From contig OZ253494.1 of assembly GCA_965262015.1 (NCBI GenBank), positions 1,018,720-1,082,719 of the forward strand: a stretch of 64,000 bases of DNA. Direction: 5' to 3'. This document shows positions 13,849-44,588 of the stretch, piece after piece. The DNA comes from Leptospiria bacterium (GTDB lineage: Bacteria; Spirochaetota; Leptospiria; Turneriellales; CBDBES01). Made by a program: the position numbers and the translations under genes. The first letter of the stretch is position 1. Each line of letters starts with the position of its first letter. Below the pieces are notes generated by a model. The model was not told the origin of the DNA. It searched no databases and saw only the letters and a list, made by a program, of their open reading frames with translations.

Positions 13849-15060
13849 TTAATCTTCACTACCATGTGTACCAGCCTCTTTATCAGCTGCACGATGAGCA
13901 TTATTAGCGGCATCTTCACCTGTAGCTTCAGCTACTTTTCTGGCAGCTGTACTCACAGTATGGCTGGCTATTCCCGTTTGGCTTTCACTCAGAGCAAAGG
14001 CCTTATTATATGCTGCATCTCCAGCTGTTATACCTTTTTGGATGCGGTCCAGTCTATCACCAACACTATAGTCTATGGCCCAAGGGAATCTGACAGATAC
14101 ACTGCTGCGTCTAGGCAGAAATGTAGAAGCCAATGCAAATTTTCCGAATTTAACTTTGAGTTTCTTAGATCGAGCATCCTTATCAAAACTAAGGCCTTCT
14201 TTGATACTCATGATCTCAATAGATACTGTACTTGAGTTGTCAGAAGGAACAAAATAATCGCTGTTTGTGGTGCTGTCTGGACACCTATGTGGATCTAATC
14301 TGAATGTGATGGCTTCACTATTTGCTGGAATAGTAACCGTTATTGTGCTTTTTGTATTCCTAAGGGACTCTTCATTATCTCCCCCTATGAACTTAAAGGA
14401 ATAAAAATTAGCTGATAACGGGAAGCCGATACCAGGGTGGCCGATACCCCCTTGCACATTACAACTACCTCTATCATCTTCTATTATTGTCACACATTGG
14501 GTATTAACCCTAACCATAATAGGGCCTGTTCCAAGGCTCCCTGTTGTGAGAGTATCTGGACAGGGAGCCCCTGTCCCTGTAGTCGGTGCAGTACTGGGAA
14601 CAATCTTAGTATGGCGTGGCATAATCTTTGGGGCTCTATGATATGCTGTTGTCGTCCCACTACCTTCACTGTTTTCTATCGCCCACATTAAAGTAACTGT
14701 TACAGGCTTGTCTGTTGGAGTCATTCTTCTCACTGTATAAACAGGCAAACGATTGGTTTTGATTGTATTCTTTATTGTTGCTATTCCATCTTCCAAGCAA
14801 TCCGAGTATTCGCCTGAACAATCTAAACTTAGTGTGACATCCACCTCTGGCACCTCTGGCACCTCTGGCACCTCTGTACCAACCATATCGTCTGGATCGC
14901 TATCAATTACCGGAACGCTACCAGCCTTGCAATATGCAAAAAAACAAACAATTATTAGTAAGCCGTAAAGTAAATGGTAAAAGTATCTATGTGTGCTGTG
15001 CTGTGCTGTGCTGTGCTGTGCTGTGCTGTGCTGTGCTGTGCTGTGCTGTGTGGTTTTCAT
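13849..15060 (-). CDS. Surface/lipoprotein family A, paralog 1 (phase-variable leader, in frame = ON)
   Basis: MKTT(QHSTA)n-HRYFYHLLYGLLIIVCFFAYC signal-peptide-like N-terminus. It shares the blocks LDCS...IATI.NTIKT..LP.YT, FYSFKF, TF.LDPHRCPD and LKVKF with 26402-27608 and 27781-28992. Confidence 0.7.
   Translation of the reverse strand: MKTTQHSTAQHSTAQHSTAQHSTHRYFYHLLYGLLIIVCFFAYCKAGSVPVIDSDPDDMVGTEVPEVPEVPEVDVTLSLDCSGEYSDCLEDGIATIKNTIKTNRLPVYTVRRMTPTDKPVTVTLMWAIENSEGSGTTTAYHRAPKIMPRHTKIVPSTAPTTGTGAPCPDTLTTGSLGTGPIMVRVNTQCVTIIEDDRGSCNVQGGIGHPGIGFPLSANFYSFKFIGGDNEESLRNTKSTITVTIPANSEAITFRLDPHRCPDSTTNSDYFVPSDNSSTVSIEIMSIKEGLSFDKDARSKKLKVKFGKFALASTFLPRRSSVSVRFPWAIDYSVGDRLDRIQKGITAGDAAYNKAFALSESQTGIASHTVSTAARKVAEATGEDAANNAHRAADKEAGTHGSED
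14996..15050 (-). repeat. Pentanucleotide microsatellite (CACAG)11 on the coding strand
   Basis: 11 perfect CTGTG units on the plus strand, starting 10 nt after the ATG at 15060. They encode (HSTAQ)n. Confidence 0.95.
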
Positions 15061-15531
15061 AGGGGAAACGTGTTACACATGCCTAAAAAATCAACACTTT
15101 TTTATATAAAATTGTAAAATAGAGTGGAAAGTTGCTACCTGCTATGGACTGGAGGGCCTATCCAGGAGCTGGACAGAATAAACCTGGGTATACATACATA
15201 TGCAGAAGCCTCTAATACTCTTTAGAGTTTTTGAAATTTTGTATTTTCTGTTCGGCTGTTGTAGATAATAGATCCTGGATATTATCTGCCTGAGAAAATA
15301 ACTGTTTCTATTATCTTCTTGTTTGGTTTTAAGGGGAACAGCAAAGTTTATAGTAAATTAGATTGTCCAGGTTCATAATGGAATTTCCAATAGAAAGCCA
15401 TGACTTAATTATTAAGATATTTACAAGATATCTCATAATTATAGTGATAGATCATGTTTAGGAGGATTGTTTGATATTATGAGTCAACACCTCTTTTTAT
15501 TAGTCTATTAGATTCGTCAGTCCAGTAAATC

Positions 15532-17508
15532 ATGCTTGCAGAAGAATTGTCTAAGCTTAGTCATTACCATTTACGTAATATGGTGAATGTATGGGGCATG
15601 CCTGTTAGAGCAAACTGTACAAAACCAACATTAATCTCTAAGATCATGCATTATTACATGGATGATTATTATCTTAAAGGGGTATTAGAAAATTTAACGC
15701 CATTACAAGTTACTATTTTATGCGTAATACTGGAAAGTAAGACAGTTTTAACTCTAGGCGAAATTTCTCGGTCTATTCGAGTACAACCAATTAATGTTGA
15801 AAAAGAGTTATCTGTTTTAAAGCATTTTCTATTAATTTATCAAAAAAAAAATCGAGCCCGCATTACAAGTAATCTAGATAAATATCCTCCTTATGATGAA
15901 GTCAAAAATCGTATACTTACAGATAAGAATATCAAGGGAAATAAACTACGCATCACCATCGAAAAGATGGTATCTACAAAAGATATTGATACTTTTTCTA
16001 AGGAATATTTACATTTACTGGGGAAAAATATTTCTAAAGATAATTTGGTTACACAAGCCACAAGTACTAGTTTTCTGGAGAAGGTCTTAACAAAATTAAG
16101 TAACGAAGAAGCAATATTAATTGATGAAATTTTCCAAAATGGTGGTATCCTTGAAATTAATCATGCTCGACTTATTCTTGAAGAAAATAAGTTAAATCAA
16201 GAAGTAGCTATTCGTAGATTGGATAACTTACAAATCGTAAAAGATTTATATTTTGTTGAGCATCGCTTTATTCGTATGCTCATTATGCCTGTTGAGTTTT
16301 TTGAATATCTGAAAGAGAATCCTCTTGTTATTAGAGAAGTAGGCATTACTGCCATGGAAGAGAAAATTCTTTCTAATGAATTTGACTTCATCATTAATCT
16401 TAAAAAATTATTATTATTTATCTCTAATAAAGGTTTCACATTAACACAGTCTCAATCTATTAAACAAGTTGATCTTAAAAAAACAGAAGAACATATGATT
16501 GATATTGATGTTAGTCTTTTTAGAAAAAAAAGCCATATATACCAAGTGGAAATTGCCCTACCTATTCTAAAATTATTTAATTTAGTTTCACTTAAAACAG
16601 ATCATCTGATTTTAGAAAATAATTTTGAAGAATTTATTAAAGAAGATATACTTGTTTTATTACAAGATATTCTAGCAAAAATTAAAGAAACCGAAAATAA
16701 ATACACCAAAGGTGAAGGCTTTTTTCTTCCTACATCACTATCTTTTTATGATCAGGCTACTTTTCATGAATGTATTGAGATGATTGGAACTACAGGCCAC
16801 ATATCAACTAAAACCATTATTGCACAGATGATAAGAGAAAAAGTTGTCTTATCGCCTACCTTCAGCATACAAGAATTTCGAACCTCGTATATGGCAGAAT
16901 ATAAACGATTAGTTTCAGCTCTGCTTTATATGCAATTATTTGGTATTATTACGGTTTATTATCCAGAGCGTACTATTGAGTTATCAGAAATAGGGAAATA
17001 TCTTTTCTTCCAAGAGCCTCTCACGATGGAAAGCACAAAGGGATGTCTATATGTTAATCCTGATGGTTCTATCTTAGCAATGAAAGATGAAATGTCTTTA
17101 TTTGATATTGCAATATTAAAAGCCTTTTGTGTTCTTCAAGAAAAAAGTTATGTTTATAATTTTATACTAAATCGAGATTCCGTACAACAAGGTATTTTAT
17201 TAGGCTATAGTATTGACAAGTTACATACTTTGCTAGTAGAAAAGTCTAAAACAAAATTACCCCAAAATCTATCTTTCTGGGTAGAAGATTGGACTAAAGA
17301 ACTACCTATTATTGTTATCGAAGAAGGAGTAGTATTATTAGAAACATCCAACCCGCAACTTAAACAGTTGCTTGTGGGACAACTAAGAAACTCTAGAATT
17401 GTACTGAAAGATATATCCCCAACTACAATGATAATTGACAAAACAAAAATTAAAGACGTAATGTTACTTGCTGAAAAATTTGATATGATTGTTAAACTTA
17501 TTCGTTAG
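15532..17508 (+). CDS. Hypothetical 658-aa cytoplasmic protein
   Basis: Long uninterrupted ORF with no TM or signal peptide. I cannot recognise a catalytic motif. The N-terminus is helical (LSKLSHYHLRNMVNVWGM...). Confidence 0.6.
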   Translation: MLAEELSKLSHYHLRNMVNVWGMPVRANCTKPTLISKIMHYYMDDYYLKGVLENLTPLQVTILCVILESKTVLTLGEISRSIRVQPINVEKELSVLKHFLLIYQKKNRARITSNLDKYPPYDEVKNRILTDKNIKGNKLRITIEKMVSTKDIDTFSKEYLHLLGKNISKDNLVTQATSTSFLEKVLTKLSNEEAILIDEIFQNGGILEINHARLILEENKLNQEVAIRRLDNLQIVKDLYFVEHRFIRMLIMPVEFFEYLKENPLVIREVGITAMEEKILSNEFDFIINLKKLLLFISNKGFTLTQSQSIKQVDLKKTEEHMIDIDVSLFRKKSHIYQVEIALPILKLFNLVSLKTDHLILENNFEEFIKEDILVLLQDILAKIKETENKYTKGEGFFLPTSLSFYDQATFHECIEMIGTTGHISTKTIIAQMIREKVVLSPTFSIQEFRTSYMAEYKRLVSALLYMQLFGIITVYYPERTIELSEIGKYLFFQEPLTMESTKGCLYVNPDGSILAMKDEMSLFDIAILKAFCVLQEKSYVYNFILNRDSVQQGILLGYSIDKLHTLLVEKSKTKLPQNLSFWVEDWTKELPIIVIEEGVVLLETSNPQLKQLLVGQLRNSRIVLKDISPTTMIIDKTKIKDVMLLAEKFDMIVKLIR

Positions 17509-17535
17509 ATTTTTGTTATCTTATAGTAATTACAA

Positions 17536-18369
17536 CTATAAGATATATGGGCGAATATAGGTAATGCGTTTGATTTGTTGATAGAAAGGGTGTAAATTAA
17601 CTTTTAGCCCTTCTGCTTCCAATCCTTGCAAACTCTCTGTAAAATCAGAAACGAAAATTTTCAGATAGCCCGGAGTATTATTTGTATTATGGCTGTTTTG
17701 TTCATAGATGCTTTTTTTTAGCGATAGTGCTACTTCAACAGATGGATCAATTACTTGGAGTTGAGGATAAAGAGCTTGTATTCTACCCTTAATTAAAGGG
17801 TAATGTGTACACCCTAAAAGGACATGGGTTACTTGTTTTGTAATGAGATTATTCATATAGTTTTGAATAACCAGCTTAAACACTTTATCATCATCATAAG
17901 CTTCTTCGATGAGGGGCACAAATAAAGGACAGGCCTGTGTATGCAATATAATAGATGGATTATATTGATTGAGTAGAATATCATAGGCTTTACTAAGAAT
18001 TGTAGAGCGTGTACCAATTACAGAAGCAATAGTAGTGGGTGTGACTATTTTTAATAATGCAGAAATACCAGGCTCAATAACTCCCATAATGGATACGTTA
18101 ATGGATTTTTGTAATGTTGATAATGCAAAGGAAGATGCTGTGTTACAGGCAATCACTATCGTTTTTACTTGGTGTGCAAGTAAAAAATCTACAATCTCTC
18201 TAGAATAACGAATAATAGTTTCTTGGGATTTATTACCATAAGGAACTCGTGCCGTATCTCCAAAATAAATAATGTTTTCATTTGGTAGTAAATTTTGTAC
18301 AGCAGCAACTATACTAAAACCACCAAGACCACTATCAAAAATACCGATTGGTGCTTGTGACATATTCAA
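17536..18369 (-). CDS. murI: Glutamate racemase
   Basis: IGIFDSGLGG, IACNTASS and LGCTHYPL contain the two catalytic Cys motifs. Confidence 0.9.
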   Translation of the reverse strand: MNMSQAPIGIFDSGLGGFSIVAAVQNLLPNENIIYFGDTARVPYGNKSQETIIRYSREIVDFLLAHQVKTIVIACNTASSFALSTLQKSINVSIMGVIEPGISALLKIVTPTTIASVIGTRSTILSKAYDILLNQYNPSIILHTQACPLFVPLIEEAYDDDKVFKLVIQNYMNNLITKQVTHVLLGCTHYPLIKGRIQALYPQLQVIDPSVEVALSLKKSIYEQNSHNTNNTPGYLKIFVSDFTESLQGLEAEGLKVNLHPFYQQIKRITYIRPYIL

Positions 18370-18460
18370 GTAACTCTTTTACAATAACTACTTTGTAGTA
18401 TCCTAACTTAGTACCAAAGATATTTGTTTCTATTATTTTGCATGTACCGTATTTATAGTT

Positions 18461-19681: not shown

Positions 19682-19709
19682 GTTAGTCTTTTAATATAGG
19701 TATAGTATT

Positions 19710-20477: not shown

Positions 20478-20484
20478 CTTTATT

Positions 20485-23400
20485 TTATTTCCTATGATAT
20501 TCTCGTCTTTCTTTTTCTAAGTCTACTAATTGGCTACCCGTAAAAGGTAGGCTTCCTTTAATATGGTGAAAGATATAGCCCCTTTCTTCCCAAATTGCAT
20601 AATAGGCTGGAACAACAAATAAAGTTACCATGGAAGCAAAAGCAAGCCCCCATCCAATAGCCAATGCCATAGGTTTAAGAAAAGGGTCATCTCCACCAAT
20701 TCCATATGCCGTGGGTAATATTCCAAAAACGGTAGTTAGAGTTGTAAGAATGACAGGCCTTAATCGAAGCAAACAGCCTTGTACAATGGCATCATATTGC
20801 TTATGGCCTTCAGATTTTCTTTGTCTAATAAAGTCTACCATTACAATAGAATCGTTCACTACAACACCCGCTAAAGCGATCATGCCAAACATAGCCAAAA
20901 AGCTAAAAACGAGATTTGGTAGAAAAAACAGTTTGTGCATACCAAATGCGAAAGTAACGCCCGTTAAACTTAACGGCACAGCAATAAGGATTACCCTAAG
21001 ATACCTTAAATTATTATACAAGAGAATAAGAATAATAGCAATACCTAAAAGAGCGATAACAGCTGCTCGTTTTAAACTATCCATGGATTCTTGTGTATCT
21101 TCGTACTCTCCACCCGCTACTACTCGTACACCTGGAAATTTTTTTAGAGTGGGTTGTAATTTATCTAATATAGTTTTATTGACTTGCACAGCAGTTGTCT
21201 GACTTTCATTGATTTGGGCATTAACATATACAACCCTCTCAAAGTTTTTGTGTTGTATCTCGGATAAACTACCTTGTTCCCTAAATTTAACAAATTTATC
21301 AATGGCAACCATATTGCCGTATCGATTGCGTATTTTTACTTTCTTAAGAGAACCAAGTGTATTACGTAATTGTTTTGGGAAAATAACACGTATATCAATA
21401 TCTTCATCAATATTTTTGATTGTGCTTGCAACGGTGCCACTGAAAGCCGTACGCACACTATTTGCAATCTGTGCTACTGTGACGCCCGCAAAAGCAGATT
21501 TTTTTTCATCTATGTCTACATTAAATTCTTTCTTATCAGATTCCCAACTATCTTTGATGCTATATACCCCAGGAACAGAATATAGAACTTGTTTCACTTT
21601 TTGAACAAATGTAAGAGTACTTTCAAAATTACTGCCCTGTATTTCTAATTGTATTGGTGCACCAACAGGAGGTCCTGGTGCCACTAGGCTACTAGCAAGC
21701 CGTATAAACTTTTTTGGTTCTTGTTTCACTATAGCAATTTTATATAAGGGTGATGAGTTGCCCTGTTGTGTTGCCTTATAAATAAAGCCATGCTTAGCAT
21801 AAAAATAAATTTTTCTCTTTGAGGGTACATAAACAGAGCGATATATTCCATTTGAAGTAGGAAACGTAATCACTTCTTTTAAGGTTTTTAAATTAATTAA
21901 AGCAAGGGTATCATGAGTATTTACCCAAATGTGGTGTTTATGAATCGGATCCGTCTTGAGCCAGGAGATAGGGCGATTATAGATATGAGCATGCTGAACT
22001 TGACGGAAAGTTTTAAGGTCAAGCATATGTATATGACCTTGTTCAGAGCCCATTATAATTTGTTGATTAGCTTCATCCAGAGTGATGGCATTAATTTTAC
22101 CCATAGGTACCTGTATATCTGGAATAAATCGCTTTTCTGCCAATTGATAAAGTGGTATACTGTCAATACGTTTACGAAGATTCATCTCATCTTCTTTATA
22201 CTCCCATATATCTAGGTTACTATCTCCATACGAAATGGCACAAATATGATATTTTTCTATACATTTAATAAAATTAATGGTCTTTTTGTATTGATGCACC
22301 GAGTCCTTGTCCATTGTAGTAGGGTCAATCTGGTATACATATCCCAATTGTGAAGTAAAGATGTCAAAAGGAGCGTTAGAGATTGGATAAAATCCATTGA
22401 CAAGATCAAAAACACCTAGATCAATAGTTTTTTGGGCAAGAACTTTATTGCTCTTTATGTCAAGAGATACATAGATGTTATCCATTGTTATAGCATTAAG
22501 CTGTTTACCCTTATTGACAACAATACCCCCTAATAGGGCCTCTATGTTCAATTTATACTGTTTTATCTGGTCGGTACGGGTATTCAACAAATGAAGATAG
22601 TTATCATTACGAATGTGATATAAAGTATCTTGGGCACCCTCCATAACAGCTACATGATGCACTGGTTTTTTAATGTCTAGTTTTCCTTGTAAGTAAGCAT
22701 GAATTTGCCCAGCTGTTCTTCCTCTAGCTGCCTCTGGAGCCAGAAAGATTGAGATTTGTGCATAATTGGATCCTCGTTTCGTAAACGGATCATTTATATC
22801 AGTTTGCTGTATGCCTACCCTGGTAGTATAACTATCAAGTTCACTTTTAGGTAAAGAACCTATAGTTTTTTCCATAGATTTTAGTCTTGAACGTGTCTCT
22901 CCCAAAACAATACCTTTTTCTGTTTCCACAGAAAAGCTTATTATTCTAATCCCTTCTTTGGGGAAGAGAATAAAACCAATCTTGCCAATAAGATATATAC
23001 TAAAGAGAAAGGTTGCAAATGTTATGAACAATGTAGTGTATTTATAAGTGATAGCACGTTCTAAAAGAGGACGGTAAACCTTGAGTAAGACTGCCATCAA
23101 TTTTACCTGTGCTCTGTGTGCCCAATTTTTCCAACTCGCTGGCTCATTTTTACGTGCATCAGTTGTCTCTTTGCTTTCTGCAAGATCAAGCACATGAGCG
23201 GGTAGCACAAAAAAACTTTCTATCAATGAACCAACCAAGGCTATAACAACCACGGCACCCATAATCCATATAAATTTTCCCATTAAACCACTCATGAAAA
23301 TAAGAGGACTGAAGGCAAAACACGTGGTACTAATGGATGCAACAACAGGCTTAACCATTTCTTGGGTGCCGTGAATGGCAGCCTGTGTAATAGGCATCCC

Positions 23401-24645
23401 TTCTTGGATATATCGATATATATTTTCTGAAATAATAATAGCGTCATCTACTACCAAACCGATCGCCATCACAAAACCAAACATAGACAATAAATTGATG
23501 CTTATACCAAAATACTGCATTAAAATTAGGGTAATGGCAAAGGCAAATGGCATACCCATACTCACAGCTATGGAGATACGCCATCCTAAAAAGAAAAATA
23601 GAACTCCAAATACTAGGAACAGACCAATAATAACATTACTGGCTAGCACGTTTAGTCTACGTCTTGTATACATTGACAGGTCATTGTAAGTTGTATAGCT
23701 GATACCTGCCTCTGGGTTTTTCTCTAGTATATTTTTTACATCACGAACTAGATGAAGAACATCGCCTTTGTTCCTTTTCAGGATAGCAGCAATAATAGCA
23801 GGCCGACCATTCGCATTTTCCAACATACTTAAGGCTTCAAATGTATCTTTGACGTTAGCGATATCGATTAACTTAACAGAGGCTCCATAGTCATTTGTGC
23901 GAATAGCAAGATTGCGTATTTCATCTAAATGATTAAACTCTTTATCAATCCTTACGTTATAGTCCCTACCAGAGTGGGATACGGTACCACCAGAGAGATT
24001 AAGATTTCTGTTAGCTAAAGATGAAATAATATCATCATGAGATATATTGTAACGTGCTAACTTGGCAGGGTTAATTTCAATATGGATTTCTCTACTGGGT
24101 TTACCTCTCACATCTACACGACCTATGTCAGGAAGTAACTCAATCTCATCGACTATATTACTTATGTGCTTACGAAATGCAAGCTCAGATATTTTGGGAT
24201 CATCTTTGTAAAAAGCTACTTCAATAATACCCTGAAGATCAGTCTTGATCTCAATGACAGTTGGTTCTTCTGCATCGTCTGGGAAACCTACCTTAGCGAT
24301 GTCAACAGCATCTTTGATTTCTTGCAGGGTCTTACTTTGGTCTGGTATACCCTCTTCTAACTGCATTGTGATCGTAGATCGATTTTCTAGTGATTTAGAA
24401 GTTATACTTTTTACGTATTCAATACCTTTTAGCTGTTTTTCGATTGGTATTGTTAATAATGATTCTACTTCTTGTGCTGCTGCCCCAGGATATATTGTGA
24501 CGATGTTGACAAAGCCCAAATTCACTGGCGTAAAAACTTCACGTCTGGCTTCTATAACAGCAAATAAACCTGCCACAAGCAGTGCGACGGATATTATGTT
24601 TGTGATTAGACTATTTCGTACTAAAAAAGCAATTAACTTATTCAC
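20485..24645 (-). CDS. RND (AcrB/AcrD/AcrF-type) efflux transporter with an oversized second periplasmic loop
   Basis: 12-TM RND layout. Conserved TM4 and TM10 blocks are GLVVDDAIIISENI and AGVVVNDSIVMVDFI. Length is 1386 aa against roughly 1000-1100 aa typical for the family. Confidence 0.85.
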   Translation of the reverse strand: MNKLIAFLVRNSLITNIISVALLVAGLFAVIEARREVFTPVNLGFVNIVTIYPGAAAQEVESLLTIPIEKQLKGIEYVKSITSKSLENRSTITMQLEEGIPDQSKTLQEIKDAVDIAKVGFPDDAEEPTVIEIKTDLQGIIEVAFYKDDPKISELAFRKHISNIVDEIELLPDIGRVDVRGKPSREIHIEINPAKLARYNISHDDIISSLANRNLNLSGGTVSHSGRDYNVRIDKEFNHLDEIRNLAIRTNDYGASVKLIDIANVKDTFEALSMLENANGRPAIIAAILKRNKGDVLHLVRDVKNILEKNPEAGISYTTYNDLSMYTRRRLNVLASNVIIGLFLVFGVLFFFLGWRISIAVSMGMPFAFAITLILMQYFGISINLLSMFGFVMAIGLVVDDAIIISENIYRYIQEGMPITQAAIHGTQEMVKPVVASISTTCFAFSPLIFMSGLMGKFIWIMGAVVVIALVGSLIESFFVLPAHVLDLAESKETTDARKNEPASWKNWAHRAQVKLMAVLLKVYRPLLERAITYKYTTLFITFATFLFSIYLIGKIGFILFPKEGIRIISFSVETEKGIVLGETRSRLKSMEKTIGSLPKSELDSYTTRVGIQQTDINDPFTKRGSNYAQISIFLAPEAARGRTAGQIHAYLQGKLDIKKPVHHVAVMEGAQDTLYHIRNDNYLHLLNTRTDQIKQYKLNIEALLGGIVVNKGKQLNAITMDNIYVSLDIKSNKVLAQKTIDLGVFDLVNGFYPISNAPFDIFTSQLGYVYQIDPTTMDKDSVHQYKKTINFIKCIEKYHICAISYGDSNLDIWEYKEDEMNLRKRIDSIPLYQLAEKRFIPDIQVPMGKINAITLDEANQQIIMGSEQGHIHMLDLKTFRQVQHAHIYNRPISWLKTDPIHKHHIWVNTHDTLALINLKTLKEVITFPTSNGIYRSVYVPSKRKIYFYAKHGFIYKATQQGNSSPLYKIAIVKQEPKKFIRLASSLVAPGPPVGAPIQLEIQGSNFESTLTFVQKVKQVLYSVPGVYSIKDSWESDKKEFNVDIDEKKSAFAGVTVAQIANSVRTAFSGTVASTIKNIDEDIDIRVIFPKQLRNTLGSLKKVKIRNRYGNMVAIDKFVKFREQGSLSEIQHKNFERVVYVNAQINESQTTAVQVNKTILDKLQPTLKKFPGVRVVAGGEYEDTQESMDSLKRAAVIALLGIAIILILLYNNLRYLRVILIAVPLSLTGVTFAFGMHKLFFLPNLVFSFLAMFGMIALAGVVVNDSIVMVDFIRQRKSEGHKQYDAIVQGCLLRLRPVILTTLTTVFGILPTAYGIGGDDPFLKPMALAIGWGLAFASMVTLFVVPAYYAIWEERGYIFHHIKGSLPFTGSQLVDLEKERREYHRK
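21690..22670 (-). other. ~320-aa insertion (aa ~660-985) in RND periplasmic loop 2
   Basis: Extra non-TM, beta-strand-like sequence lies between ...YLQGKLDIKK and the conserved GPPVGAPIQLEIQGSNFE block. Confidence 0.6.
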
Positions 24646-24651
24646 GATATA

Positions 24652-26401: not shown

Positions 26402-27608
26402 TTACTCAGCACTACCATACTGGCCAGCAACTTTATCAACTATATCATAAATATCATTGTTAAATAATACATCGTTTTCTGTTTGTAGATCACTTAGTGT
26501 TTTCTTAGTTTTTTCCACAAGTGCATTCTTAATTGCTTGCTTAAAAACTGCGTCAGTTACACCCAATCCTCCATTAGAAAATTTAACTTTTAGGCTTTTG
26601 CTTGTCGTATCGTGAGCGAAGTCTGCAACTCGTTCGGCAACGGGGACAGCTGTTTGATCGAGACTCTTAATACCAACAGATATTGTTGATGAAGATTTAG
26701 TAGGAACTTCATAATCATCACTTGTACTGTTGTCTGGACATCTATGTGGATCTAAATGAAATGTAGTGCTTCGGCTACCTTCTGGAATCTCTACGCTTAT
26801 AAGATGTATTGCCCGCCCAGTTCCGGGAACTGTCCCATCCTCTGGATCTTCTATAGCTCTACCATCTGACTTTATGAACTTAAAGGAATAAAAAGTAGCT
26901 GACCATTTATGATCTACATTGTTAGTCTGCAATTTACAAGAATGCCTTGCTATCGTAGGATTATAGGACATATCATCATATTTGAAGTTAACAAGAGGAG
27001 GACTAACCTTTGGATGCAGATCGTATGCCTTATGTCTACTAAGACCCACGTTTCTCATAGTGCCAGTCGCATAAGTCTTGCTGCCCCTAACACTTCCTAT
27101 GCCACGACCAAAACCACTACCATCAGCGGCAGCCACGTCCCATCCTATCTTAACTGTTAAATCATATTCTGTAGAACCTTTTCTGCATAACGTATACATA
27201 GGTAAATTATCTGTTTTTATTGTATTGGTTATTGTTGCTATTTTGTTGCCTTCGGTCCCCTTCTTGCAATTCTTGTGACCTTTGCTTGAACAATCTAAAC
27301 GCAGGAAGACATCTTCTTCTGGTGGATCAACATCACATGTATGAACATCCTTAATTGGTGGGTCGTTACTATTCGGTGGGTCGTTGGGGTTGGGGCTATT
27401 CGTCGGATCGCTAGCATCCACTGGACTGCTATCTCCTCCTGGACTGCAATACGTAAAAAAACAAATAGTTATTAGCAGGCCATAAAGTAACTGGTAAAAG
27501 TATCTATGTGTTGTGCTGTTGTGCTGTTGTGCTGTTGTGCTGTTGTGCTGTTGTGCTGTTGTGCTGTTGTGCTGTTGTGCTGTTGTGCTGTTGTGCTGTT
27601 GTGCTCAT
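26402..27608 (-). pseudogene. Surface/lipoprotein family A, paralog 2: reversibly frameshifted (phase OFF)
   Basis: The ATG at 27608 reads MSTTAQQHN... and stops at TAG 27506-27504. The body frame (339 codons, 26402-27421) is open upward through the repeat but has no start and is closed by TGA 27607-27605. The ATG-to-CAT(HRYFY, 27508) distance is 100 nt. Confidence 0.8.
27511..27605 (-). repeat. Octanucleotide microsatellite (CAGCACAA) x 11 + 7 nt on the coding strand
   Basis: Perfect TTGTGCTG units counted on the plus strand from 27511. The tract abuts the ATG (27606-27608). Confidence 0.95.
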
Positions 27609-27640
27609 GAGTGAAACGTAGTTTTATATACTTACAAAAG

Positions 27641-27665
27641 CAATACTTTTTTTAAAAAAGTATTG
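27641..27665. promoter_or_regulatory. 25-bp palindrome CAATACTTTTTT-T-AAAAAAGTATTG, 33-57 nt upstream of the family A ATG
   Basis: Perfect 12-nt arms. An identical copy lies at 29025-29049 at the same distance from the paralog's ATG. Confidence 0.4.
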
Positions 27666-27780
27666 AAAATTGTAGAAAGTTAAATTTGTATCAAGAGTAT
27701 TATGTATCTTCTAAATTAAAGTGCAAAATTTATATACAAAAAATTTCAATGTAATGTTAGTTTATATTCTTTCTTTTTCA

Positions 27781-28992
27781 TTACTCAGCACTACCATACT
27801 CTCCAGCAACTTTATCAACTACATCATAAATTTCATTGTTAAATAATACATTCCTTATTTTTTCTAGCTGATTTAGTACACCAGACGCCATCTCCGTACC
27901 ACCCGTCTCCACCACATTACCATTCATATTCAAACTTACTTCACCACTACTCACCGTTACACTACCCACCTCTTTACCATCTGCAAATGTGGTCTCAAGT
28001 GCAGTCTCAATTGCAGTCTTAAACGTTATCCCCCCTATAGAAGTATCCAATTCCTCATTAGAAAATTTAACTTTTAGGCCTTTGCTTGTGTCATCGGAAG
28101 TAAGAGCTACACTCTGTTCGGCGGTATCGAGACTCTTAATACCAACAGATATTTTTGATGAAGATGCAGGAGGAGCGTCATAATCATCACTTGTACTGTC
28201 GTCTGGACATCTATGTGGATCTAAACGAAATGTAGTGCTTTGGCTACCTGCTGGAATCTCTACGGTTATACGATTTATTGCCTCCCCAGTTTGGGGAGGC
28301 AATAAATCTATAGCTCTACCATCTGAATCTAGGAACTTAAAGGAATAAAAAGTAGCTGAAAGATCATCAGACCGCACTATACAAGAATGCCTCTTTGGAG
28401 ATGTATTACCAGAGTTGTAACGAGCATTAAAGTATCGGAAGTTAACAAGAGGGGGACTAACCTTTGGATGCAGATCATACGCAGAAGTCGACCCACTACT
28501 TCCTAAGCCACGACCAAAACCACTACCCTCACTGCCAGTCACGTCCCATTTTAACTCAACTGTTAAATCATATTCTGTAGAACCTTTTCTGCATAACGTA
28601 TACATAGGTAAATTATCTGTTTTTATTGTATTGGTTATTGTTGCTATTTCGTTGCCTTCGGTCCCCTTGCAACCCCTATAACCGCTTGAACAATCTAAAC
28701 GCAGGAAGACATCTTTGTCTGGTGGATCAACATCACATATATGAACATCTTCGTCTGGTGGAGGAGGGCTACTACTTACCGGATCGTTACCAGCCTTGCA
28801 ATATGTAAAAAAACAAATAGTTATTAGCAGGCCATAAAGTAACTGATAAAAGTATCTATGTGTTGTGCTGTTGTGCTGTTGTGCTGTTGTGCTGTTGTGC
28901 TGTTGTGCTGTTGTGCTGTTGTGCTGTTGTGCTGTTGTGCTGTTGTGCTGTTGTGCTGTTGTGCTGTTGTGCTGTTGTGCTGTTGTGCTCAT
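27781..28992 (-). CDS. Surface/lipoprotein family A, paralog 3 (in frame = ON)
   Basis: M(STTAQQHN)5STT-HRYFYQLLYGLLITICFFTYC, then the family blocks LRLDCSS, IATITNTIKTDNLPMYTLCRKGSTEYDLTV, ATFYSFKF, TTFRLDPHRCPD and LKVKF. The C-terminus VLFNNEIYDVVDKVAGEYGSAE is shared with paralog 2. Confidence 0.75.
   Translation of the reverse strand: MSTTAQQHNSTTAQQHNSTTAQQHNSTTAQQHNSTTAQQHNSTTHRYFYQLLYGLLITICFFTYCKAGNDPVSSSPPPPDEDVHICDVDPPDKDVFLRLDCSSGYRGCKGTEGNEIATITNTIKTDNLPMYTLCRKGSTEYDLTVELKWDVTGSEGSGFGRGLGSSGSTSAYDLHPKVSPPLVNFRYFNARYNSGNTSPKRHSCIVRSDDLSATFYSFKFLDSDGRAIDLLPPQTGEAINRITVEIPAGSQSTTFRLDPHRCPDDSTSDDYDAPPASSSKISVGIKSLDTAEQSVALTSDDTSKGLKVKFSNEELDTSIGGITFKTAIETALETTFADGKEVGSVTVSSGEVSLNMNGNVVETGGTEMASGVLNQLEKIRNVLFNNEIYDVVDKVAGEYGSAE
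28863..28989 (-). repeat. Octanucleotide microsatellite (CAGCACAA) x 15 + 7 nt
   Basis: Perfect TTGTGCTG units on the plus strand from 28863, abutting the ATG (28990-28992). The ATG-to-CAT(28860) distance is 132 nt, which is in frame. Confidence 0.95.
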
Positions 28993-31187: not shown

Positions 31188-31198
31188 CGAGTCTATTC

Positions 31199-31825
31199 AT
31201 GAAAGTTTTATTAACAAAAGATGTCCCTAATCTAGGGAAAAGTGGCAATATCAGAATAGTCAAGGATGGTTACGCCAGAAACTATTTATTGCCTAATTCA
31301 CTAGTAATTCCATTTAACGCAAACTCTAGTAAACACAAACAATTTTTAGAGGAAATGTCTTTGAAAAAAATCGCAAAAAGACGTCGTGAGGCCGAAGAAT
31401 ATCAGGGCAAGGTTGAAGGTGTAACGGTTACTTTTCAGGTTAAGGTAGGGGAAGGCGGTAAACTATTTGGTAGCATTACAAGTCTTCATATTCATAGAGA
31501 GCTTAAAAATCAAGGTATCGCAATTGACCGACGTGACATTAACCTTGATAGCCCTATTCGCAGTTTAGGTATATTTTCTGTATCTACTAAGTTATTTGAT
31601 GATATTGCAGCAAGTATCAAGGTAGTTGTGCAAGATGAGCACGGTAATACATCCTTTGTTCCTCCCAAACCAGAAACGGAGAATGATGATTCGCTTGATG
31701 AATACAGAACTGAAAACGTTCAAGAAAATACATCTTCGTCTCAACATGATGAGAAATCTTCAGACGAACATGATGAGCAATCTTCAGACGAACATGATGA
31801 ATCGTCCGAACATATAGACACTTGA
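31199..31825 (+). CDS. rplI: 50S ribosomal protein L9 with an acidic repeat tail
   Basis: MKVLLTKDVPNLGKSGNIRIVKDGYARNYLLP. The C-terminal ~60 aa are acidic, HDEKSSDEHDEQSSDEHDESSEH, encoded by 24-nt repeats at 31741-31815. Confidence 0.88.
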   Translation: MKVLLTKDVPNLGKSGNIRIVKDGYARNYLLPNSLVIPFNANSSKHKQFLEEMSLKKIAKRRREAEEYQGKVEGVTVTFQVKVGEGGKLFGSITSLHIHRELKNQGIAIDRRDINLDSPIRSLGIFSVSTKLFDDIAASIKVVVQDEHGNTSFVPPKPETENDDSLDEYRTENVQENTSSSQHDEKSSDEHDEQSSDEHDESSEHIDT

Positions 31826-33212: not shown

Positions 33213-33214
33213 CT

Positions 33215-34629: not shown

Positions 34630-34631
34630 AA

Positions 34632-34964: not shown

Positions 34965-34972
34965 TACAATAA

Positions 34973-36358: not shown

Positions 36359-36461
36359 ACAGTATAGATCGAAGATGTTAATGATAAGAGTTTTTGTGTC
36401 AAGAATAATAAAGTTGACAGTTTTTAGTTAAATTCTCTATTAAAACAGGCAGGAGTCATCT

Positions 36462-37676: not shown

Positions 37677-37691
37677 TCTCATCCCCCTGCT

Positions 37692-38889: not shown

Positions 38890-38928
38890 CTCCTATATTA
38901 GGTTGGGGGAAAGACCAGAATATACCGC

Positions 38929-39219
38929 TTAACTAGACTCTTTATCACTGGATTTTACTGCTGAAGATTCATTATCTTTACTTTGAGTTTTATCCTGAAT
39001 TTTTTTATTTTCGTTAGATTCTGTTGTATCTTTCTTATTCTTGTAGTCAGTAACGTAAAACCCACTTCCTTTGAAGTGGATACCAGCACCGCCTGATATC
39101 TTTCTTTTAATCTCTTTACTGCCACATTCCCCACAAGATAATTCTGGTGATTGTGACATACCATGAAAAACTTCAAAACCGAAATCACATTGGTTACAAT
39201 AATACTCGTAAGTAGGCAT
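38929..39219 (-). CDS. FmdB-family zinc-ribbon protein
   Basis: MPTYEYYCNQCDFGFEVFHGMSQSPELSCGECGS is the canonical FmdB CxxC...CxxC N-terminus. Confidence 0.85.
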   Translation of the reverse strand: MPTYEYYCNQCDFGFEVFHGMSQSPELSCGECGSKEIKRKISGGAGIHFKGSGFYVTDYKNKKDTTESNENKKIQDKTQSKDNESSAVKSSDKESS

Positions 39220-39295
39220 AGGTTATACTCACTTCAGATCATGAAAAAATGATGGAGCTGTCAATGCATTAATTGGTTACTATTGTAGAATCCAT

Positions 39296-39560
39296 GGACA
39301 TATGTTACAGTTATTGCCTAGGCCACTTTCATAGATTCGTAAAATCTCTTTGTGGTGTTAAAAAATCTTCTTAGTTGTTTGATTGTGTTCTTGATCTGTT
39401 TTTTAGCAATGCTAAAAGGAGTTTCCATTGGTTGCTCTCTTTATTTTTAGTATCTTAAAGAAAAACGGCTTATGAACGCCTTAAACTGTCTAAAAATGGA
39501 ACCTACGCTTTCAAATTTTCTAAGACTTCATAGAAAAAATGGTGGTAAGAGATTAATCGC
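39296..39560 (-). mobile_element. Internally deleted IS remnant (5' leader/start fused to the 3' end of an rve-type transposase gene)
   Basis: The minus strand encodes METPFSIAKKQIKNTIKQLRRFFNTTKRFYESMKVA*. The last ~70 bp (39300-39366) are essentially identical to 45010-45077, and the 5' part is homologous to 2850-2965. Confidence 0.45.
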
Positions 39561-39701
39561 CTCGTATAAAAAGTCTATAACTGTAATATAAAATTAGAAA
39601 AACTAATTTTATATGAAACATGGTGATAATCAAAAAACAGCTAAAAAAACTAAATACCCCACCCCAACGTGGGATGGGTAAAATAATATACGAGATTACA
39701 A

Positions 39702-41299
39702 TTATTGTGTTATGGTTATCTTTCGGATACGATGGTTGCCCGTATCTGCCACATATACATTGCCTAACTTATCAACCGCTACATCTTCAGGCCTTTTAAA
39801 TTGTACTGAAGTACCTGTGCCATCAGAACTACCACTACCGCCACCCGCCAATGTTGTAACCACACCATCAGGCGTTATTTTGCGGATACGATCGTTATCA
39901 CGATCTGCCACGTATACAAACCCTTTACTATCAACCGCTACTCCACTAGGCTTATTAAATTTTGCTGAAGTACCCACACCATCAGAATTACCACTACCGC
40001 CACCCGCCAATGTCGTAACCACACCACCAGGTGTTATTTTTTGGATACGATCGTTATCACGATCTGCCACGTATACAAACCCTTTACTATCAACTGCTAC
40101 ACTAACAGGAGTATTAAATTGTGCTGGACTCCCACCACCTGCAAATGTTGTAACCGTACCTGTGGACGTTATTTTGCGGATACGATCGTTCACAGTATCT
40201 GCCACGTATAATACATTGCCTGAACCATCAACCGCTACTCCATAAGGATTACTAAATCGCGCATCGGTACCCATGCCCTTCGTACAGCCGGAGGAGGGGG
40301 GAGTACATGGCATGCCTCCTACCCCACTTACGTTACCACCTGCCAAGGTTATAACCGTACCCGTACCCGTACCACTAGAAGGAGGTGTTATTTTTCGGAT
40401 AAGACTTCTAACCGAATCTGCCACATATACAAACCCATCACTATCAACCGCTACACCTTCAGGCTGATAGAATTGTGCTACACCAGGCATCCCAGGCATG
40501 TCATCCATACCGCCCACAGCACCAGTACCTGCGAATAAACTAACCGTACCTGTGGACGTTATTTTGCGGATACGATGATTCTGACGATCTGCTACATATA
40601 TTATATTGCCTAAACTATTAACCGCTACTCCAGCAGGCTCACTAAATTTTGCATCTGTACCCATGCCATCTTTGCAGGACTCTCCTATTGTTGCGAGGAT
40701 AATGCGAGTAGTAGTGCCACATTTAGTAGCAGTACCCATAGTACCCCCCTCGTTACCACCTGCTAACGTTGTAACCGTAACCTCGGCACAGGTTTTATCA
40801 CTTTTTAAGGCATAATAGTCATCGCAGGAAGTACATTTTTCTATACCCTTCCCAGGAGCTTTACCTGTTAATGGCACACCATTGGGGCAAATAAAATTGA
40901 ATGGTCTGCAAAGTTCACCATTTAGATCAAAACTAGGATCGCAAGAAACACATTTTTCTGTGTTAGCGGTTGAAACCTTTTCTGTTGATTCAACACCATT
41001 CGTACAAATAGGATCAAACTGTCCAGAACCACCACCAGAAGGGGTAGTAGCGTCGGCAGAGGCACCACCACCACATTGGACAGCAGCACTTACCACCAAT
41101 ACGGCAAATACGCTGATCGAGAAGTATCTTTTGGATACATGGAAAGAATGTTGACCTTGATCAACAATTCGTTCTAAAAATTTAGGAAAAGACTTATAGG
41201 TTGCTTGTTGCTTGTTGCTTGTTGCTTGTTGCTTGTTGCTTGTTGCTTGTTGCTTGTTGCTTGTTGCTTGTTGCTTGTTGCTTGTTGCTTGTTTATCAT
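39702..41299 (-). pseudogene. NHL-repeat lipoprotein, paralog 1: reversibly frameshifted (phase OFF)
   Basis: The body ORF 39702-41099 has Cys-rich modules plus NHL blades (GVAVDSKGFVYVADRDNDRIRKITP...). The SD-preceded ATG at 41299 reads MINK(QQATSNK)4QPISLFLNF and stops at 41176-41174. The body frame continues upstream as ...YKSFPKFLERIVDQGQHSFHVSKRYFSISVFAVLVVSAAVQCGGG (lipobox) with no start codon. ATG-to-body offset is 200 nt. Confidence 0.75.
41201..41291 (-). repeat. Heptanucleotide microsatellite (CAAGCAA)13 on the coding strand
   Basis: 13 perfect TTGCTTG units on the plus strand, beginning 8 nt after the ATG (41299). Confidence 0.95.
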
Positions 41300-41362
41300 T
41301 TTAGTACCTCTCTTTACTGCACCAATGTATGATGCATTGAGACACGAAGTTCTCGTTAGCAT

Positions 41363-41392
41363 AGGATATCTTCTTAATGAATAAAATGTCAA
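41363..41392 (-). promoter_or_regulatory. Candidate sigma70-type promoter of NHL paralog 1
   Basis: The minus strand reads TTGACA (41392-41387), an 18-nt spacer, then TATCCT (41368-41363). An AAGAGAGG RBS lies 7 nt before the ATG. Confidence 0.4.
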
Positions 41393-41476
41393 TTGTTTTT
41401 TATTTATTATCTTTCCAGGTTCTTTTTTTTCAGTAATTAAATATTCGTTTTGCTAACAATCTGTCAGAAAAATGTT

Positions 41477-41625
41477 ATGTATTTGGAAGGTCTATTTTCT
41501 CTAGCGGGCGGAGTTGCAGGTCTACTTCTTAGTAGGGTTACCCTTTTAGTATTCTGGTATTAGCTGGATTTATTGCCCTTTCTGGCGTTGCTGTTTTAGT
41601 TAGCATTGTTTTGGTTGGCTCGTGA
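41477..41625 (+). pseudogene. Degenerate fragment of an HME-RND (CzcA/CusA-like) transporter gene
   Basis: Across frameshifts it reads ...LAGGVAGLLLS..PF.YSGIS..AGFIALSGVAVLVSIVLVGS*, which resembles the TM11-12 block GTPFSISAGVGFIALFGVAVLNG. Confidence 0.4.
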
Positions 41626-41669
41626 GAAACGGCTTATCACAGCCACAACGCAACACAGAGGAATTGTGA

Positions 41670-41819
41670 AATCTTGGTACCGCCAGCATTATCTATGGAC
41701 AGTATCATCATATATCACCTGGATATAAGCCACTCTACTTGTCGGAGTTTACTTGGCGTTTTAATAATAGAAAAAATAAGAATGTGTTCAGGGAATTTAT
41801 GAAAAGGACTATTTTGTAG
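41670..41819 (+). mobile_element. C-terminal remnant of an IS1595-family (ISXO2-like DDE) transposase
   Basis: Translation is NLGTASIIYGQYHHISPGYKPLYLSEFTWRFNNRKNKNVFREFMKRTIL*. The Y-H-H-[IV]-S...YL.EF.[WF]R.N.R tail is typical of this family. It is truncated 5' by TGA at 41667. Confidence 0.6.
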
Positions 41820-41829
41820 TTAGTTTAAC

Positions 41830-42246
41830 TTAGTTAGCACGATTCATATTTCTCGCAATACCATTTCCGCCCAACAAACCTATTGCAAGCGTTACAAAAT
41901 GACTTAGTATAAGATAACCTTCTTGTTGCCCGTCTACAAATACTATCAAATAAACTGATAATCCTAAGATAAATGCACACACACAACAAGCAAATAATAA
42001 AAGATGATTACGGATCTTTCTGTTAGCCGTTATATTTTCCTGTTGGTTGTCGATCTGTTTACTACTTAGTTCAAAATTTCTCTGGTTATTTTTATCATTT
42101 ACCTCAAGTAAAGAACTATCATTACGGGCTTGCTTTATCCTAAGCTATAGATACTTGTTCTCATTGTCCAAAAATTTCCCAATGGCTTTCTCTTGAGAAA
42201 AATTATTTTGAGTGTGATCATTCTTAGACGTATCTTTCCTATTCAT
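41830..42246 (-). pseudogene. Small membrane protein gene interrupted by one in-frame TAG
   Basis: 139 codons in one frame: MNRKDTSKNDHTQNNFSQEKAIGKFLDNENKYL-TAG(42147-42145)-LRIKQARND...two TM segments...ARNMNRAN*. Its ATG overlaps the stop of the upstream ORF (ATGAATAG). Confidence 0.5.
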
Positions 42247-42517
42247 TTATATTTCTAATAGGGATCTCATTATTCATACTTAAAAGAGAATGCCGTATTT
42301 TTCTAAGATAATGTCTTTTTTCTTCAGATGAAATTACGATCTTACCTACATGAGACAAAGAAGCAGTAGCTTTATGTAACATTTCTGGACAAGTCTTTTG
42401 TCTATATTCTATTTCCTGACAAGCATCAGCAATACTAAGAACAGAGACATCATTAAATACTCCCATACCATAACCCTCCAACATCACACGTTTCGACATA
42501 TCAGCATACACAATCAA
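42239..42517 (-). CDS. Hypothetical 92-aa protein
   Basis: Intact ORF, translationally coupled to the interrupted membrane-protein gene downstream. I recognise no motif. Confidence 0.4.
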   Translation of the reverse strand: MIVYADMSKRVMLEGYGMGVFNDVSVLSIADACQEIEYRQKTCPEMLHKATASLSHVGKIVISSEEKRHYLRKIRHSLLSMNNEIPIRNINE

Positions 42518-42879
42518 GTAATTTTTGTAAAATGCCCATTTTCCGATCTATCACACGAATCTTTGATTTTAATGTAGATTTTTTCAGCTGTCAATTCGCT
42601 AACATTGCATATCAGCGAATTATACTCATGTGTGTCATCGTCTGACATGCCATAATGAATAAAATCATCAGTTGGGTCACATAACCTATGTGTGCCAATT
42701 GTCTTTTACCAATGCTACAATAAAATCATATGCCTCAGTAGAAATTCTTTCTACAAATAAAAATTCATCCGTAGTCAATTCGAAAAGATCAGCTTGTCGC
42801 ATGCGGATTTCTATACTTTGTTGGCAATATATATTGTCAATAAAGTATAGATGTCTATTGTAAAGATTCTTGATGTTGG

Positions 42880-42994
42880 GAAAGGCCATCAGAAGGGTTA
42901 GTAGCGTCGGCAGAGGGGAGAGGGGGCACCTCCACATTGGACGGTGCTTACCACCAATACGGCAAACACGCTGATCGAGAAGTATCTTTTGAAT
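42880..42994 (-). pseudogene. 5' fragment of a third NHL-family gene (signal-peptide region only)
   Basis: The reverse complement reads FKRYFSISVFAVLVVSTVQCGGAPS... It matches 44380-44465 apart from a 7-nt insertion. Promoter, ATG, heptamer tract and body are all missing. Confidence 0.6.
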
Positions 42995-43134
42995 AAAAGG
43001 TTTATAACCGCAATATAAAATTAGAAAAACTAATTTTATATGAAACATGGTGATAATCAAAAAACAGCTAAAAAAAGAAAACTAAATACCCCACCCCCAA
43101 CGTGGGATGGGTATAATAAGATACGAGATTACAA

Positions 43135-44588
43135 TTATTGTGGTATGGTTATTTTGCGGATACGATCGTTACCCGTATCTGCCACATATACATTGCCTAA
43201 CTTATCAACCGCTACATCTTCAGGCCTATTAAATTGTACTGAAGTACCTGTGCCATCAGAACTACCACTACCGCCACCCGCCAATGTTGTAACCACACCA
43301 TCAGGTGTTATTTTGCGGATACGATGATTATTAAGATCTGCCACATATACAAACCCTTTACTATCAACTGCCACTCCATAAGGCTTATTAAATTTTGCTG
43401 AAGTACCCACACCATCAGAACTACCACTACCGCCACCCGCCAATGTTGTAACCACACCATTAGGTGTTATTTTTTGGATACGATAATTATCACGATCTGC
43501 CACATATACATTGTTTGAACCATCAACTGCTACACTAACAGGCCTATTAAATTGTGCTGGACTCCCACCACCTGCAAATAAGCTAACCGTACCCATACCA
43601 CTAGAATCAAGCGTTATTTTATGGATATGATTGTTCCCAGTATCTGCCACGTATACAATCCCTGAACTATCAACCGCTACTCCAAAAGGTTCGCTAAGAC
43701 TAGTACCCGTCAAGGTATCAACCACACCTGCAGACGTTATCTTACGGATACTATTGTTGAATCTATCTGCCACATATACAAACCCATCACTATCAACCGC
43801 TACACCTTCAGGCTGCCGGAATTGTGCTACATTACCCGGACCATTCATAAAACCTCCTCCTTCTATCATCCCTCCCATACCATCCGCAGTCATACCAGTA
43901 CCTGCGAATGAGCTAACCACACGACCAGGCGTTATTTTGCGGATACGATTGTTCTGACGATCTACTACATATATATTGTCTAAACTATCAACCGCTATTC
44001 CAGCAGGATTATTAAATTCTGCTGAAGTACCTATGCCATCCATACAGCTGGAGGAGGGTGGAGTACATGGCATGCCTCCACCCTTGTTACCACCCGCCAA
44101 CGTTGTAACCGTAACCTCGGCACAGGTTTTATCACTTTTTAAGGCATAATAACTATTGCAAGAAGTACATTTTTCTATACCCTTCCCAGGAGCTTTACCT
44201 GTTGATTCAACACCATTCGTACAAATAAAATTGAATGGTCTGCAAAGTTCACCATTTTTCTCAAAACCAGTATTGCAAGAAACACATTTTTCTGTGTTAG
44301 CGGTTGAAACCTTTTCTGTTGAGGGAACACCATTCGTACAAATAGGATCAAACTGTCCAGACCCACCACCAGAAGGGATAGTAGCGTCGGCAGAGGGGGC
44401 ACCTCCACATTGGATGGTGCTTACCACCAATACGGCAAATACGCCGATCGAGAAGTATCTTTTGAATACATGGAAAGAATGTTGACCTTGATCAACAATT
44501 CGTTCTAAAAATTTAGGAAAAGACTTATAGGTTGCTTGTTGCTTGTTGCTTGTTGCTTGTTGCTTGTTGCTTGTTGCTTGTTTATCAT
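43135..44588 (-). pseudogene. NHL-repeat lipoprotein, paralog 2: reversibly frameshifted (phase OFF)
   Basis: Body ORF 43135-44430 (431 codons, NHL blades). The ATG at 44588 is followed by 7 heptamer units. ATG-to-body offset is 158 nt, the same wrong frame as paralog 1. Upstream in the body frame is ...HSFHVFKRYFSIGVFAVLVVSTIQCGGA. Confidence 0.75.
44532..44580 (-). repeat. Heptanucleotide microsatellite (CAAGCAA)7
   Basis: 7 perfect TTGCTTG units on the plus strand, 8 nt after the ATG (44588). Confidence 0.95.

Follow-up and report, generated by a model that had tools for sequence, protein, structure and literature searches.

Why should five genes for exported proteins in one stretch of bacterial DNA each begin with a long, perfect microsatellite whose unit is never a multiple of three nucleotides (nt)? 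The stretch, hereafter the window, comprises 64,000 nt from a Leptospiria bacterium (assembly GCA_965262015.1, contig OZ253494.1, positions 1,018,720–1,082,719), and the five genes, A to E, belong to two multicopy families of predicted lipoproteins. Our favored reading, to which we assign a probability of roughly 0.8, is that the tracts are contingency loci mediating phase variation of both families by slipped-strand mispairing. An earlier note on this DNA, made from its sequence alone, had also proposed a frameshift contingency system, and both the frame logic and the comparison of paralogues point to this as the best reading. The genes and their tracts are listed below, where ON denotes a gene whose ATG is in frame with the signal peptide and the mature protein.

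13849–15060, minus strand: gene A (P0004), ON, encoding a predicted lipoprotein of 403 residues with a conserved LDPHRCPD motif
14992–15050, minus strand: tract of gene A, (CACAG)11.8, 7 nt after the ATG at 15060, encoding permutations of HSTAQ
26402–27608, minus strand: gene B, OFF, a paralogue of C whose 369-codon body open reading frame (ORF) is intact in another frame and is restored by one added unit
27509–27605, minus strand: tract of gene B, (CAGCACAA)12.1, 0 nt after the ATG at 27608
27781–28992, minus strand: gene C (P0001), ON, encoding a predicted lipoprotein of 403 residues of the A/B/C family
28861–28989, minus strand: tract of gene C, (CAGCACAA)16.1, 0 nt after the ATG at 28992, encoding permutations of STTAQQHN
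39702–41299, minus strand: gene D, OFF, giving 534 residues with one added unit, a predicted lipoprotein with two Cys-rich modules and an NHL-repeat beta-propeller
41200–41293, minus strand: tract of gene D, (CAAGCAA)13.4, 3 nt after the ATG at 41299
43135–44588, minus strand: gene E, OFF, a tandem duplicate of D, giving 486 residues with one added unit
44531–44582, minus strand: tract of gene E, (CAAGCAA)7.4, 3 nt after the ATG at 44588

Repeat tracts between start codon and signal peptide

Tandem Repeats Finder and an exact-repeat scan were applied to the window, with 20 shuffled versions of it as a control. Exactly five long perfect microsatellites were found (52–129 nt, units of 5, 7 or 8 nt). 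The longest tract in the shuffled sequences (n=20) measured 16 nt, and all remaining repeats of the window with a unit of at least 4 nt have 3.9 copies or fewer. Read on the coding (minus) strand, the units are CACAG, CAGCACAA and CAAGCAA (TGTGC, TGTTGTGC and GTTGCTT on the plus strand), and T is absent from all three. The repeat scans and the reading of ORFs thus bear out the earlier description of five non-triplet, T-free tracts placed between an ATG and a signal peptide. They also agree with it that the repeats it cites elsewhere in the window are triplet-compatible (9 nt at 14842–14876, 24 nt at 31743–31800 and 21 nt at 54243–54588).

Each tract is located upstream of a hydrophobic segment that ends in Cys. 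In A, B and C, the sequence after the tract reads HRYFY(H/Q)LLYGLLI(I/T)(V/I)CFF(A/T)YC and continues with K-A-G or S-P-G, a layout of a basic residue, about 17 hydrophobic residues and the Cys. In D and E, the tract and the signal peptide do not directly adjoin, being separated by about 25 residues (YKSFPKFLERIVDQGQHSFHV). The leader (...SKRYFSI(S/G)VFAVLVVS(AAV/TI)QC, then GG) is followed by the two Cys-rich modules and the propeller. The peptides encoded by the tracts (STAQH, STTAQQHN and KQQATSN) are polar, and all lie upstream of the hydrophobic core. All five tracts are therefore non-triplet perfect repeats inside an ORF near its 5′ end, which is one mark of a contingency locus, and, as in loci of the Opa type, the repeat lies in the region coding for the leader, whose cleavage is predicted. 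The remaining exported proteins of the window have ordinary, short leaders free of repeats.

Translation of the assembly gives A and C as ON and B, D and E as OFF, the same states as reported previously. When the number of units was changed in silico, a full-length product appeared at every third value and a truncated one otherwise, and for B, D and E the addition of exactly one unit suffices to reach ON. Past the tract, the wrong frames meet a stop after 1, 8 or 12 codons (1 codon for the ATG frame of B); the early termination described in the earlier note is thus correct, while its range of 2–10 codons was approximate. No in-frame ATG, GTG or TTG is present between the tract and the hydrophobic core in any of the five genes, so that the signal peptide can be reached only through the tract. 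On this ground we rejected a downstream start, which would turn the tract into a 5′ untranslated region. Public annotation of gene B consists of the truncated P0002 only. Two other family members, P0008 and P0250, are likewise annotated only from an internal Met just past the putative lipidation site.

Slipped-strand mispairing at replication would add or remove one unit, and each gain or loss would shift the signal peptide and the mature protein into or out of the frame of the ATG. One copy-number class in three would yield a full-length exported lipoprotein, and the other two would end 1–12 codons past the tract. The tract peptide is polar, neutral or basic, and upstream of the predicted cleavage site; cleavage would thus discard it together with the signal peptide, and every ON copy number would yield an identical mature protein. 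Use of the switch by two multicopy surface-protein families would result in combinatorial surface variation. We infer that slippage occurs at a useful rate and that export proceeds despite the long polar pre-sequence. Transcriptional slippage and programmed ribosomal frameshifting were rejected on general grounds, given the heteropolymeric units and the absence of any evident slippery or stimulatory element. We also rejected the idea that slippage is driven by a DNA structure such as a hairpin, since the tracts are nearly structure-free.

The tracts could be real and their copy numbers, and with them the ON/OFF calls, could still derive from consensus errors in the assembly or from a mixed population. 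Repeats of 52–129 nt are open to miscounting, and a mixed signal would also be expected from any population that varies in phase. However, the tracts are without imperfections and the paralogues differ by whole units, and errors of this kind would alter only the states, not the nature of the loci. We consider such an artefact highly improbable.

Diverged paralogues and intact OFF genes

The duplicated genes allow the tracts to be compared in related contexts. B and C have promoter, leader and downstream sequence in common, with tracts that differ by exactly 4 units (12 versus 16). D and E are 92% identical from about 300 nt upstream through the leader and the first mature codons, and their tracts differ by exactly 6 units (13 versus 7). 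The tracts are free of substitutions, while the flanks of the paralogues have diverged by 8–18% (gene bodies by 14–18%). Whole-unit differences and pure tracts between diverged paralogues are the pattern expected of ongoing slippage.

The OFF genes retain long ORFs (369 codons in B, 499 in D and 465 in E). In the DNA alignment of B and C, 12 of 12 gaps are multiples of 3. The alignment of D and E has 8 such gaps out of 10, and the remaining pair, of 25 and 11 nt, adds up to 36. When the observed number of differences was placed at random, the ORF stayed stop-free in 0.1–6% of simulations. These observations argue that the OFF alleles of B, D and E are not decaying.

They bear directly on an account in which the OFF genes are dead pseudogenes of a decaying family in a shrinking genome, with the microsatellites as neutral, slippage-prone DNA and no selected switching. 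Such an account draws on the three of five genes that are out of frame, on a ratio of nonsynonymous to synonymous substitution rates (dN/dS) close to 1, on a genome that is small for its order (PMC12236494), on the truncated fragments of the A/B/C family in this genome (P0249, P0251 and P0254), and on a remnant beside gene E:

42916–43000, minus strand: orphan D/E signal-peptide segment, 93% identical to that of E, with no ATG, tract or promoter

However, decay would not be expected to place all five tracts at the same functional position and none elsewhere in the 64 kb, or to leave OFF bodies intact over 369–499 codons with net length differences in frame, as the low simulated frequencies indicate. 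Each OFF gene is also one unit from ON, and the perfect purity of the tracts implies ongoing turnover. Decay is therefore very unlikely in our judgment, and phase variation by slippage is preferred.

The orphan segment (within 41600–43130) lies directly after the terminator-like hairpin of E and resembles what would be left of a third NHL lipoprotein gene after its loss through recombination. The approximately 1.3 kb between D and this segment gave no family matches. A small divergent ORF for a hydrophobic peptide (MYLEGLFSLAGGVAGLLLS...) has been duplicated with the D/E promoter region (41450–41563 and about 44740–44890, both plus strand); its two copies differ by a 1-nt indel.

Divergence between the paralogues (26402–28992 and 39702–44588) is a mosaic, with 60-codon blocks of synonymous divergence (dS) of about 0.03 beside blocks of about 0.47. 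Such a pattern suggests that family members exchange sequence by gene conversion, as other antigen families do, and this would add variation at a second level.

In the source genome, the A/B/C family comprises at least 13 members or fragments, as shown by a profile search of 1.84 billion cluster representatives together with cluster look-ups. Their leaders vary in both unit and copy number. P0003 starts with MQT(PHHTT)5HRYFY, and back-translation from the protein is compatible with a fourth T-free unit, the 5-nt CCACA. Five AQQHNSTT repeats (about 15 units of the 8-mer) are present in P0007 and a single one (about 3 units) in each of P0005 and P0006, and P0249 has about one unit.

Distant relatives of A/B/C were found only in the ENA assembly ERZ26693861, where they form tandem arrays and have ordinary leaders with no long microsatellites (L084, 8568–8590; L085, 98–7735). 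Because these relatives have ordinary leaders, the tract is a derived feature of the lineage studied here. The leader of one of them begins with ATGACAACAAAACAAAACAAG, a T-free proto-repeat of about three ACAAA units. In other relatives from this assembly, it is the region after the lipidation Cys that contains repeats, which are six residues or 18 nt long (PDMNGN and PDTNGD). D and E have a Cys-rich module at the N-terminus that is homologous (E = 9e-8) to an N-terminal module of distant relatives of A/B/C. The two families, described earlier as unrelated, thus differ in their core domains and are not wholly unrelated.

Products, unit composition and gene surroundings

The A/B/C family matches nothing in Pfam or NCBIfam and is thus an orphan family. 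An AlphaFold model of its mature domain has a mean predicted local distance difference test score (pLDDT) of 60.5 and a predicted template modelling score (pTM) of 0.62, and a Foldseek search of the PDB with this model returned weak beta-sandwich matches (collagen-binding adhesin domains, pilins and the p53 core) with TM scores of 0.2–0.4. We claim no fold for the family, as the model is of low to moderate confidence and the matches are weak and generic. D and E match PF01436 (NHL) at E = 1e-50 and 8e-52, with six repeats each, and match only NHL. A search with the NHL protein was dominated by generic NHL propellers and was uninformative on the leader.

D and E each have a promoter-like site (TTGACA-18-TAT(C/T)CT), a Shine-Dalgarno-like sequence (AAAGAGAGG) before the ATG, and a terminator-like hairpin. 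In D, the promoter-like site is TTGACA-18-TATCCT at 41392–41363 and the hairpin is at 39678–39658; the hairpin of E is at 43111–43090. The leaders HRYFYHLLYGLLIIVCFFAYC (followed by KAG) and SKRYFSISVFAVLVVSAAVQC (followed by GGG) resemble a leader of the relatives, LFLVTLCLTSVFLLLC (followed by GGD), although the residues before the Cys are non-canonical. We read the Cys as the lipidation site because the distant relatives have an ordinary lipoprotein leader (MKLNQVNQKRKGHLFLVTLCLTSVFLLLC, followed by GGD). From these leaders we infer lipidation and surface exposure of the products.

Several points weigh against phase variation of surface lipoproteins. The lipobox is non-canonical in both families (FAYC, VQC and IQC). 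Polar extensions of 23–60 residues are an unusual feature ahead of a signal peptide, and we assume that export tolerates them. A, B and C have no recognisable sigma-70 promoter or Shine-Dalgarno sequence, though Shine-Dalgarno sequences are sparse across the whole window. The A/B/C genes were found in one genome only among 5.8 billion clustered proteins and 1.84 billion cluster representatives. The dN/dS between paralogues of 0.7–1.1 fits diversifying selection on antigens and fits relaxed constraint equally well. In addition, a scan of a genome collection with the A/B/C family profile gave no relatives, and a scan of metagenome contigs with DNA patterns made of tract plus flank gave no matches.

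Much had been made in the earlier note of the absence of stop codons from the tracts in any frame, which it regarded as a feature of design. This property is forced, since any translated non-triplet repeat must be stop-free because all three phases are read within three units. Given a stop-free unit and the coding-strand composition of the window, T would also be absent with a probability of 0.24 (5-mer), 0.14 (7-mer) or 0.11 (8-mer). The five tracts cannot be counted as separate events, since B/C and D/E arose by recent duplication, and CACAG and CAGCACAA, which can be aligned with each other, are the units of homologous leaders. About two independent origins are left, and with these the joint chance of T-freeness is roughly 0.015–0.03, which is suggestive only. 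Of the single design rule that had been proposed, the non-triplet unit and the placement after the ATG stand as real and would be the substance of the switch; T-freeness asks for more than a lack of stops, but the rule as a whole was overstated.

Three ordinary explanations of T-freeness can be given. T at the second codon position specifies Phe, Leu, Ile, Met or Val, and at the first position Phe, Leu, Ser, Tyr, Cys, Trp or a stop. Leaving T out thus ensures a polar peptide without hydrophobic, aromatic or Cys residues and, since no unit contains GA, without acidic ones. Such a peptide would suit the n-region of a signal peptide. Alternatively, n-regions are already rich in A and C, and a short repeat such as the (ACAAA)~3 of the relative described above is a plausible seed for expansion. 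The third explanation concerns the message. RNA without U can form only G–C pairs, and as single strands the tracts have minimum free energies of 0 to −4.2 kcal/mol (DNA), with only trivial 2-bp G–C hairpins within the tract as RNA. A structure-free tract would keep the initiation region open at any length, which also fits. T-free units are known elsewhere, for example CCAA and AACAACC in Haemophilus (PMC2651432).

This openness could itself be the function, with the length of the tract setting the efficiency of translation or export through a U-free open initiation region and the frameshifts as a side effect. The near absence of structure in the single-stranded tracts would suit such tuning, as would the lack of a Shine-Dalgarno sequence in A, B and C and the range of ON members from about 1 to 16 units. 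Martin-Farmer and Janssen are said to have found in 1999 that downstream CA-rich repeats raise translation in E. coli. However, triplet-compatible units would serve this purpose equally and more safely, whereas all four units observed or deduced (5, 5, 7 and 8 nt) are non-triplet and three of the five genes are frameshifted. Moreover, when the flanks are included, fold energies are not unusual compared to those of shuffled sequences. We regard tuning as very unlikely and retain phase variation as the function of the tracts.

The genomic neighborhood of the five genes is of a housekeeping nature (rpsF-ssb-rplI-dnaB, trpA, an aspartokinase-like amino-acid kinase and an RND transporter). The transporter, of AcrB/RND type (1386 residues, 20485–24645, minus strand), has a beta-propeller-like insert at about residues 785–964, between its ACR_tran and MMPL/SecDF-like parts. 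Ribosomal protein L9 (31184–31825, plus strand) is called at 213 residues, and its L9 domains end near residue 150; the C-terminal extension holds the 24-nt repeat (2.4 copies at 31743–31800). The 21-nt unit at 54243–54588 (about 16 copies, 77–96% matches) forms a triplet-compatible spacer repeat in a TonB_C-domain protein of 747 residues (53909–56152, minus strand). The longest homopolymer of the window, A10 at 15842–15851, is a possible slippage site inside a 658-residue ORF (15532–17508, plus strand) that has a weak, sub-threshold Pfam match to Helicase_C_3.

Known contingency systems and the source lineage

The opa genes of Neisseria, named in the earlier note as the closest analogue, are a fair comparison, with a pentameric leader repeat and a multi-locus family. 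Unlike the T-free tracts described here, which encode a polar extension of about 20–45 residues ahead of the hydrophobic core, the opa repeat includes T and codes for the core of the signal peptide itself. Opa proteins are beta-barrel outer-membrane proteins, while the products here are predicted lipoproteins with no sequence homology to them. Furthermore, one family here uses 5- and 8-nt units and probably a second 5-nt unit, and the other a 7-nt unit. In both systems, the 5′ end of the coding sequence, where the leader peptide is specified, contains a non-triplet repeat with a pentameric unit; in opa the residues it encodes are removed with the leader, and the same would apply here. They would also share a frame shift by slipped-strand mispairing and the combinatorial expression of a multi-locus surface family, established for opa (PMC3960869) and deduced from sequence in our case. 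The CTCTT repeats in the leader-peptide coding region of opa switch the family at about 1e-3 per cell per generation (PMC3960869).

The contingency loci of Haemophilus influenzae are similar in that genes for surface proteins or host interaction carry long perfect repeats in their 5′ coding regions. Most are tetranucleotide tracts, and rarer units of 5, 7 and 8 nt are candidate phase-variation tracts (PMC2651432). Its hepta- and octanucleotide tracts are, however, mostly located upstream of genes, where they modulate promoters (hmw1A/hmw2A), and not in leaders (PMC2651432). The system described here belongs to another organism and involves other proteins, and its repeats are distinct in preceding a lipoprotein signal peptide. 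In Helicobacter pylori, a CT repeat in the 5′ coding region of sabA and other outer-membrane protein genes, where the signal sequence is encoded, toggles an exported adhesin by slippage (PMC2715451). There, in contrast, the unit is a dinucleotide that contains T, the products are outer-membrane beta-barrels and the phylum is another. Enrichment of repeats at the N-terminus is a documented signature of phase variation across pathogens (PMC3315296).

Like the families predicted here, Vlp, Vsp and Vpma of Mycoplasma are multigene families of surface lipoproteins with combinatorial expression, for which shuffling driven by a recombinase has been described (PMC11868660). Such systems also make use of promoter homopolymer tracts. 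Neither mechanism involves a microsatellite in the coding region of a leader.

The source genome is a contig of 1.92 Mb (1,922,353 bp). Its PurA is 57–60% identical to sequences from metagenome-assembled genomes labelled Turneriella, Spirochaetia, Spirochaetota or Leptospiraceae, and about 51% identical to those of Leptospira, which places the source as a divergent Leptospirales lineage. A PurA scan of the genome collection gave 48–50% matches to unrelated phyla and was discarded as misleading, since the scan depends on pattern seeds. An exported protein of 240 residues (10240–10962, minus strand) has weak, sub-threshold matches to the Leptospira-specific LIC_12096, FcpB (a flagellar-coiling protein) and LenA. 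Cultivated Leptospiraceae generally have the largest genomes among the spirochaetes (PMC12236494). The genome would be a strongly reduced one provided that the 1.92-Mb contig comprises the entire chromosome.

The mechanism is known from classical contingency loci; here it would operate in a new lineage and with an unusual placement ahead of the signal peptide. Limited literature searches returned no report of repeat-driven phase variation in Leptospirales and none of the unit strings as repeats, and to our knowledge no such variation is known in this order. We therefore suggest, tentatively, that this is the first simple-sequence contingency system described in Leptospirales, in an unusually small genome of 1.92 Mb. 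In it, a hypermutable tract would occupy a polar extension that can be discarded, in front of a lipoprotein signal peptide, with all ON lengths maturing alike. The unit would have been replaced at least twice within one family (CACAG, CAGCACAA and the putative CCACA) while remaining T-free, which would imply selection on the peptide or on mRNA openness beyond that on frame.

The loci would offer a clean natural test of the constraints on coding microsatellites, as paralogues carry units of different length in the same leader, and copies with only 1–3 units should be locked ON. If our reading is correct, the two protein families would be flagged as likely surface antigens or adhesins. The window alone would generate combinatorial surface variation with 32 states, and the rest of the genome would add more. 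Such a system would be a sign that this uncultured lineage, with its reduced genome, is under strong fluctuating selection from phages, predators or the immune system of a host.

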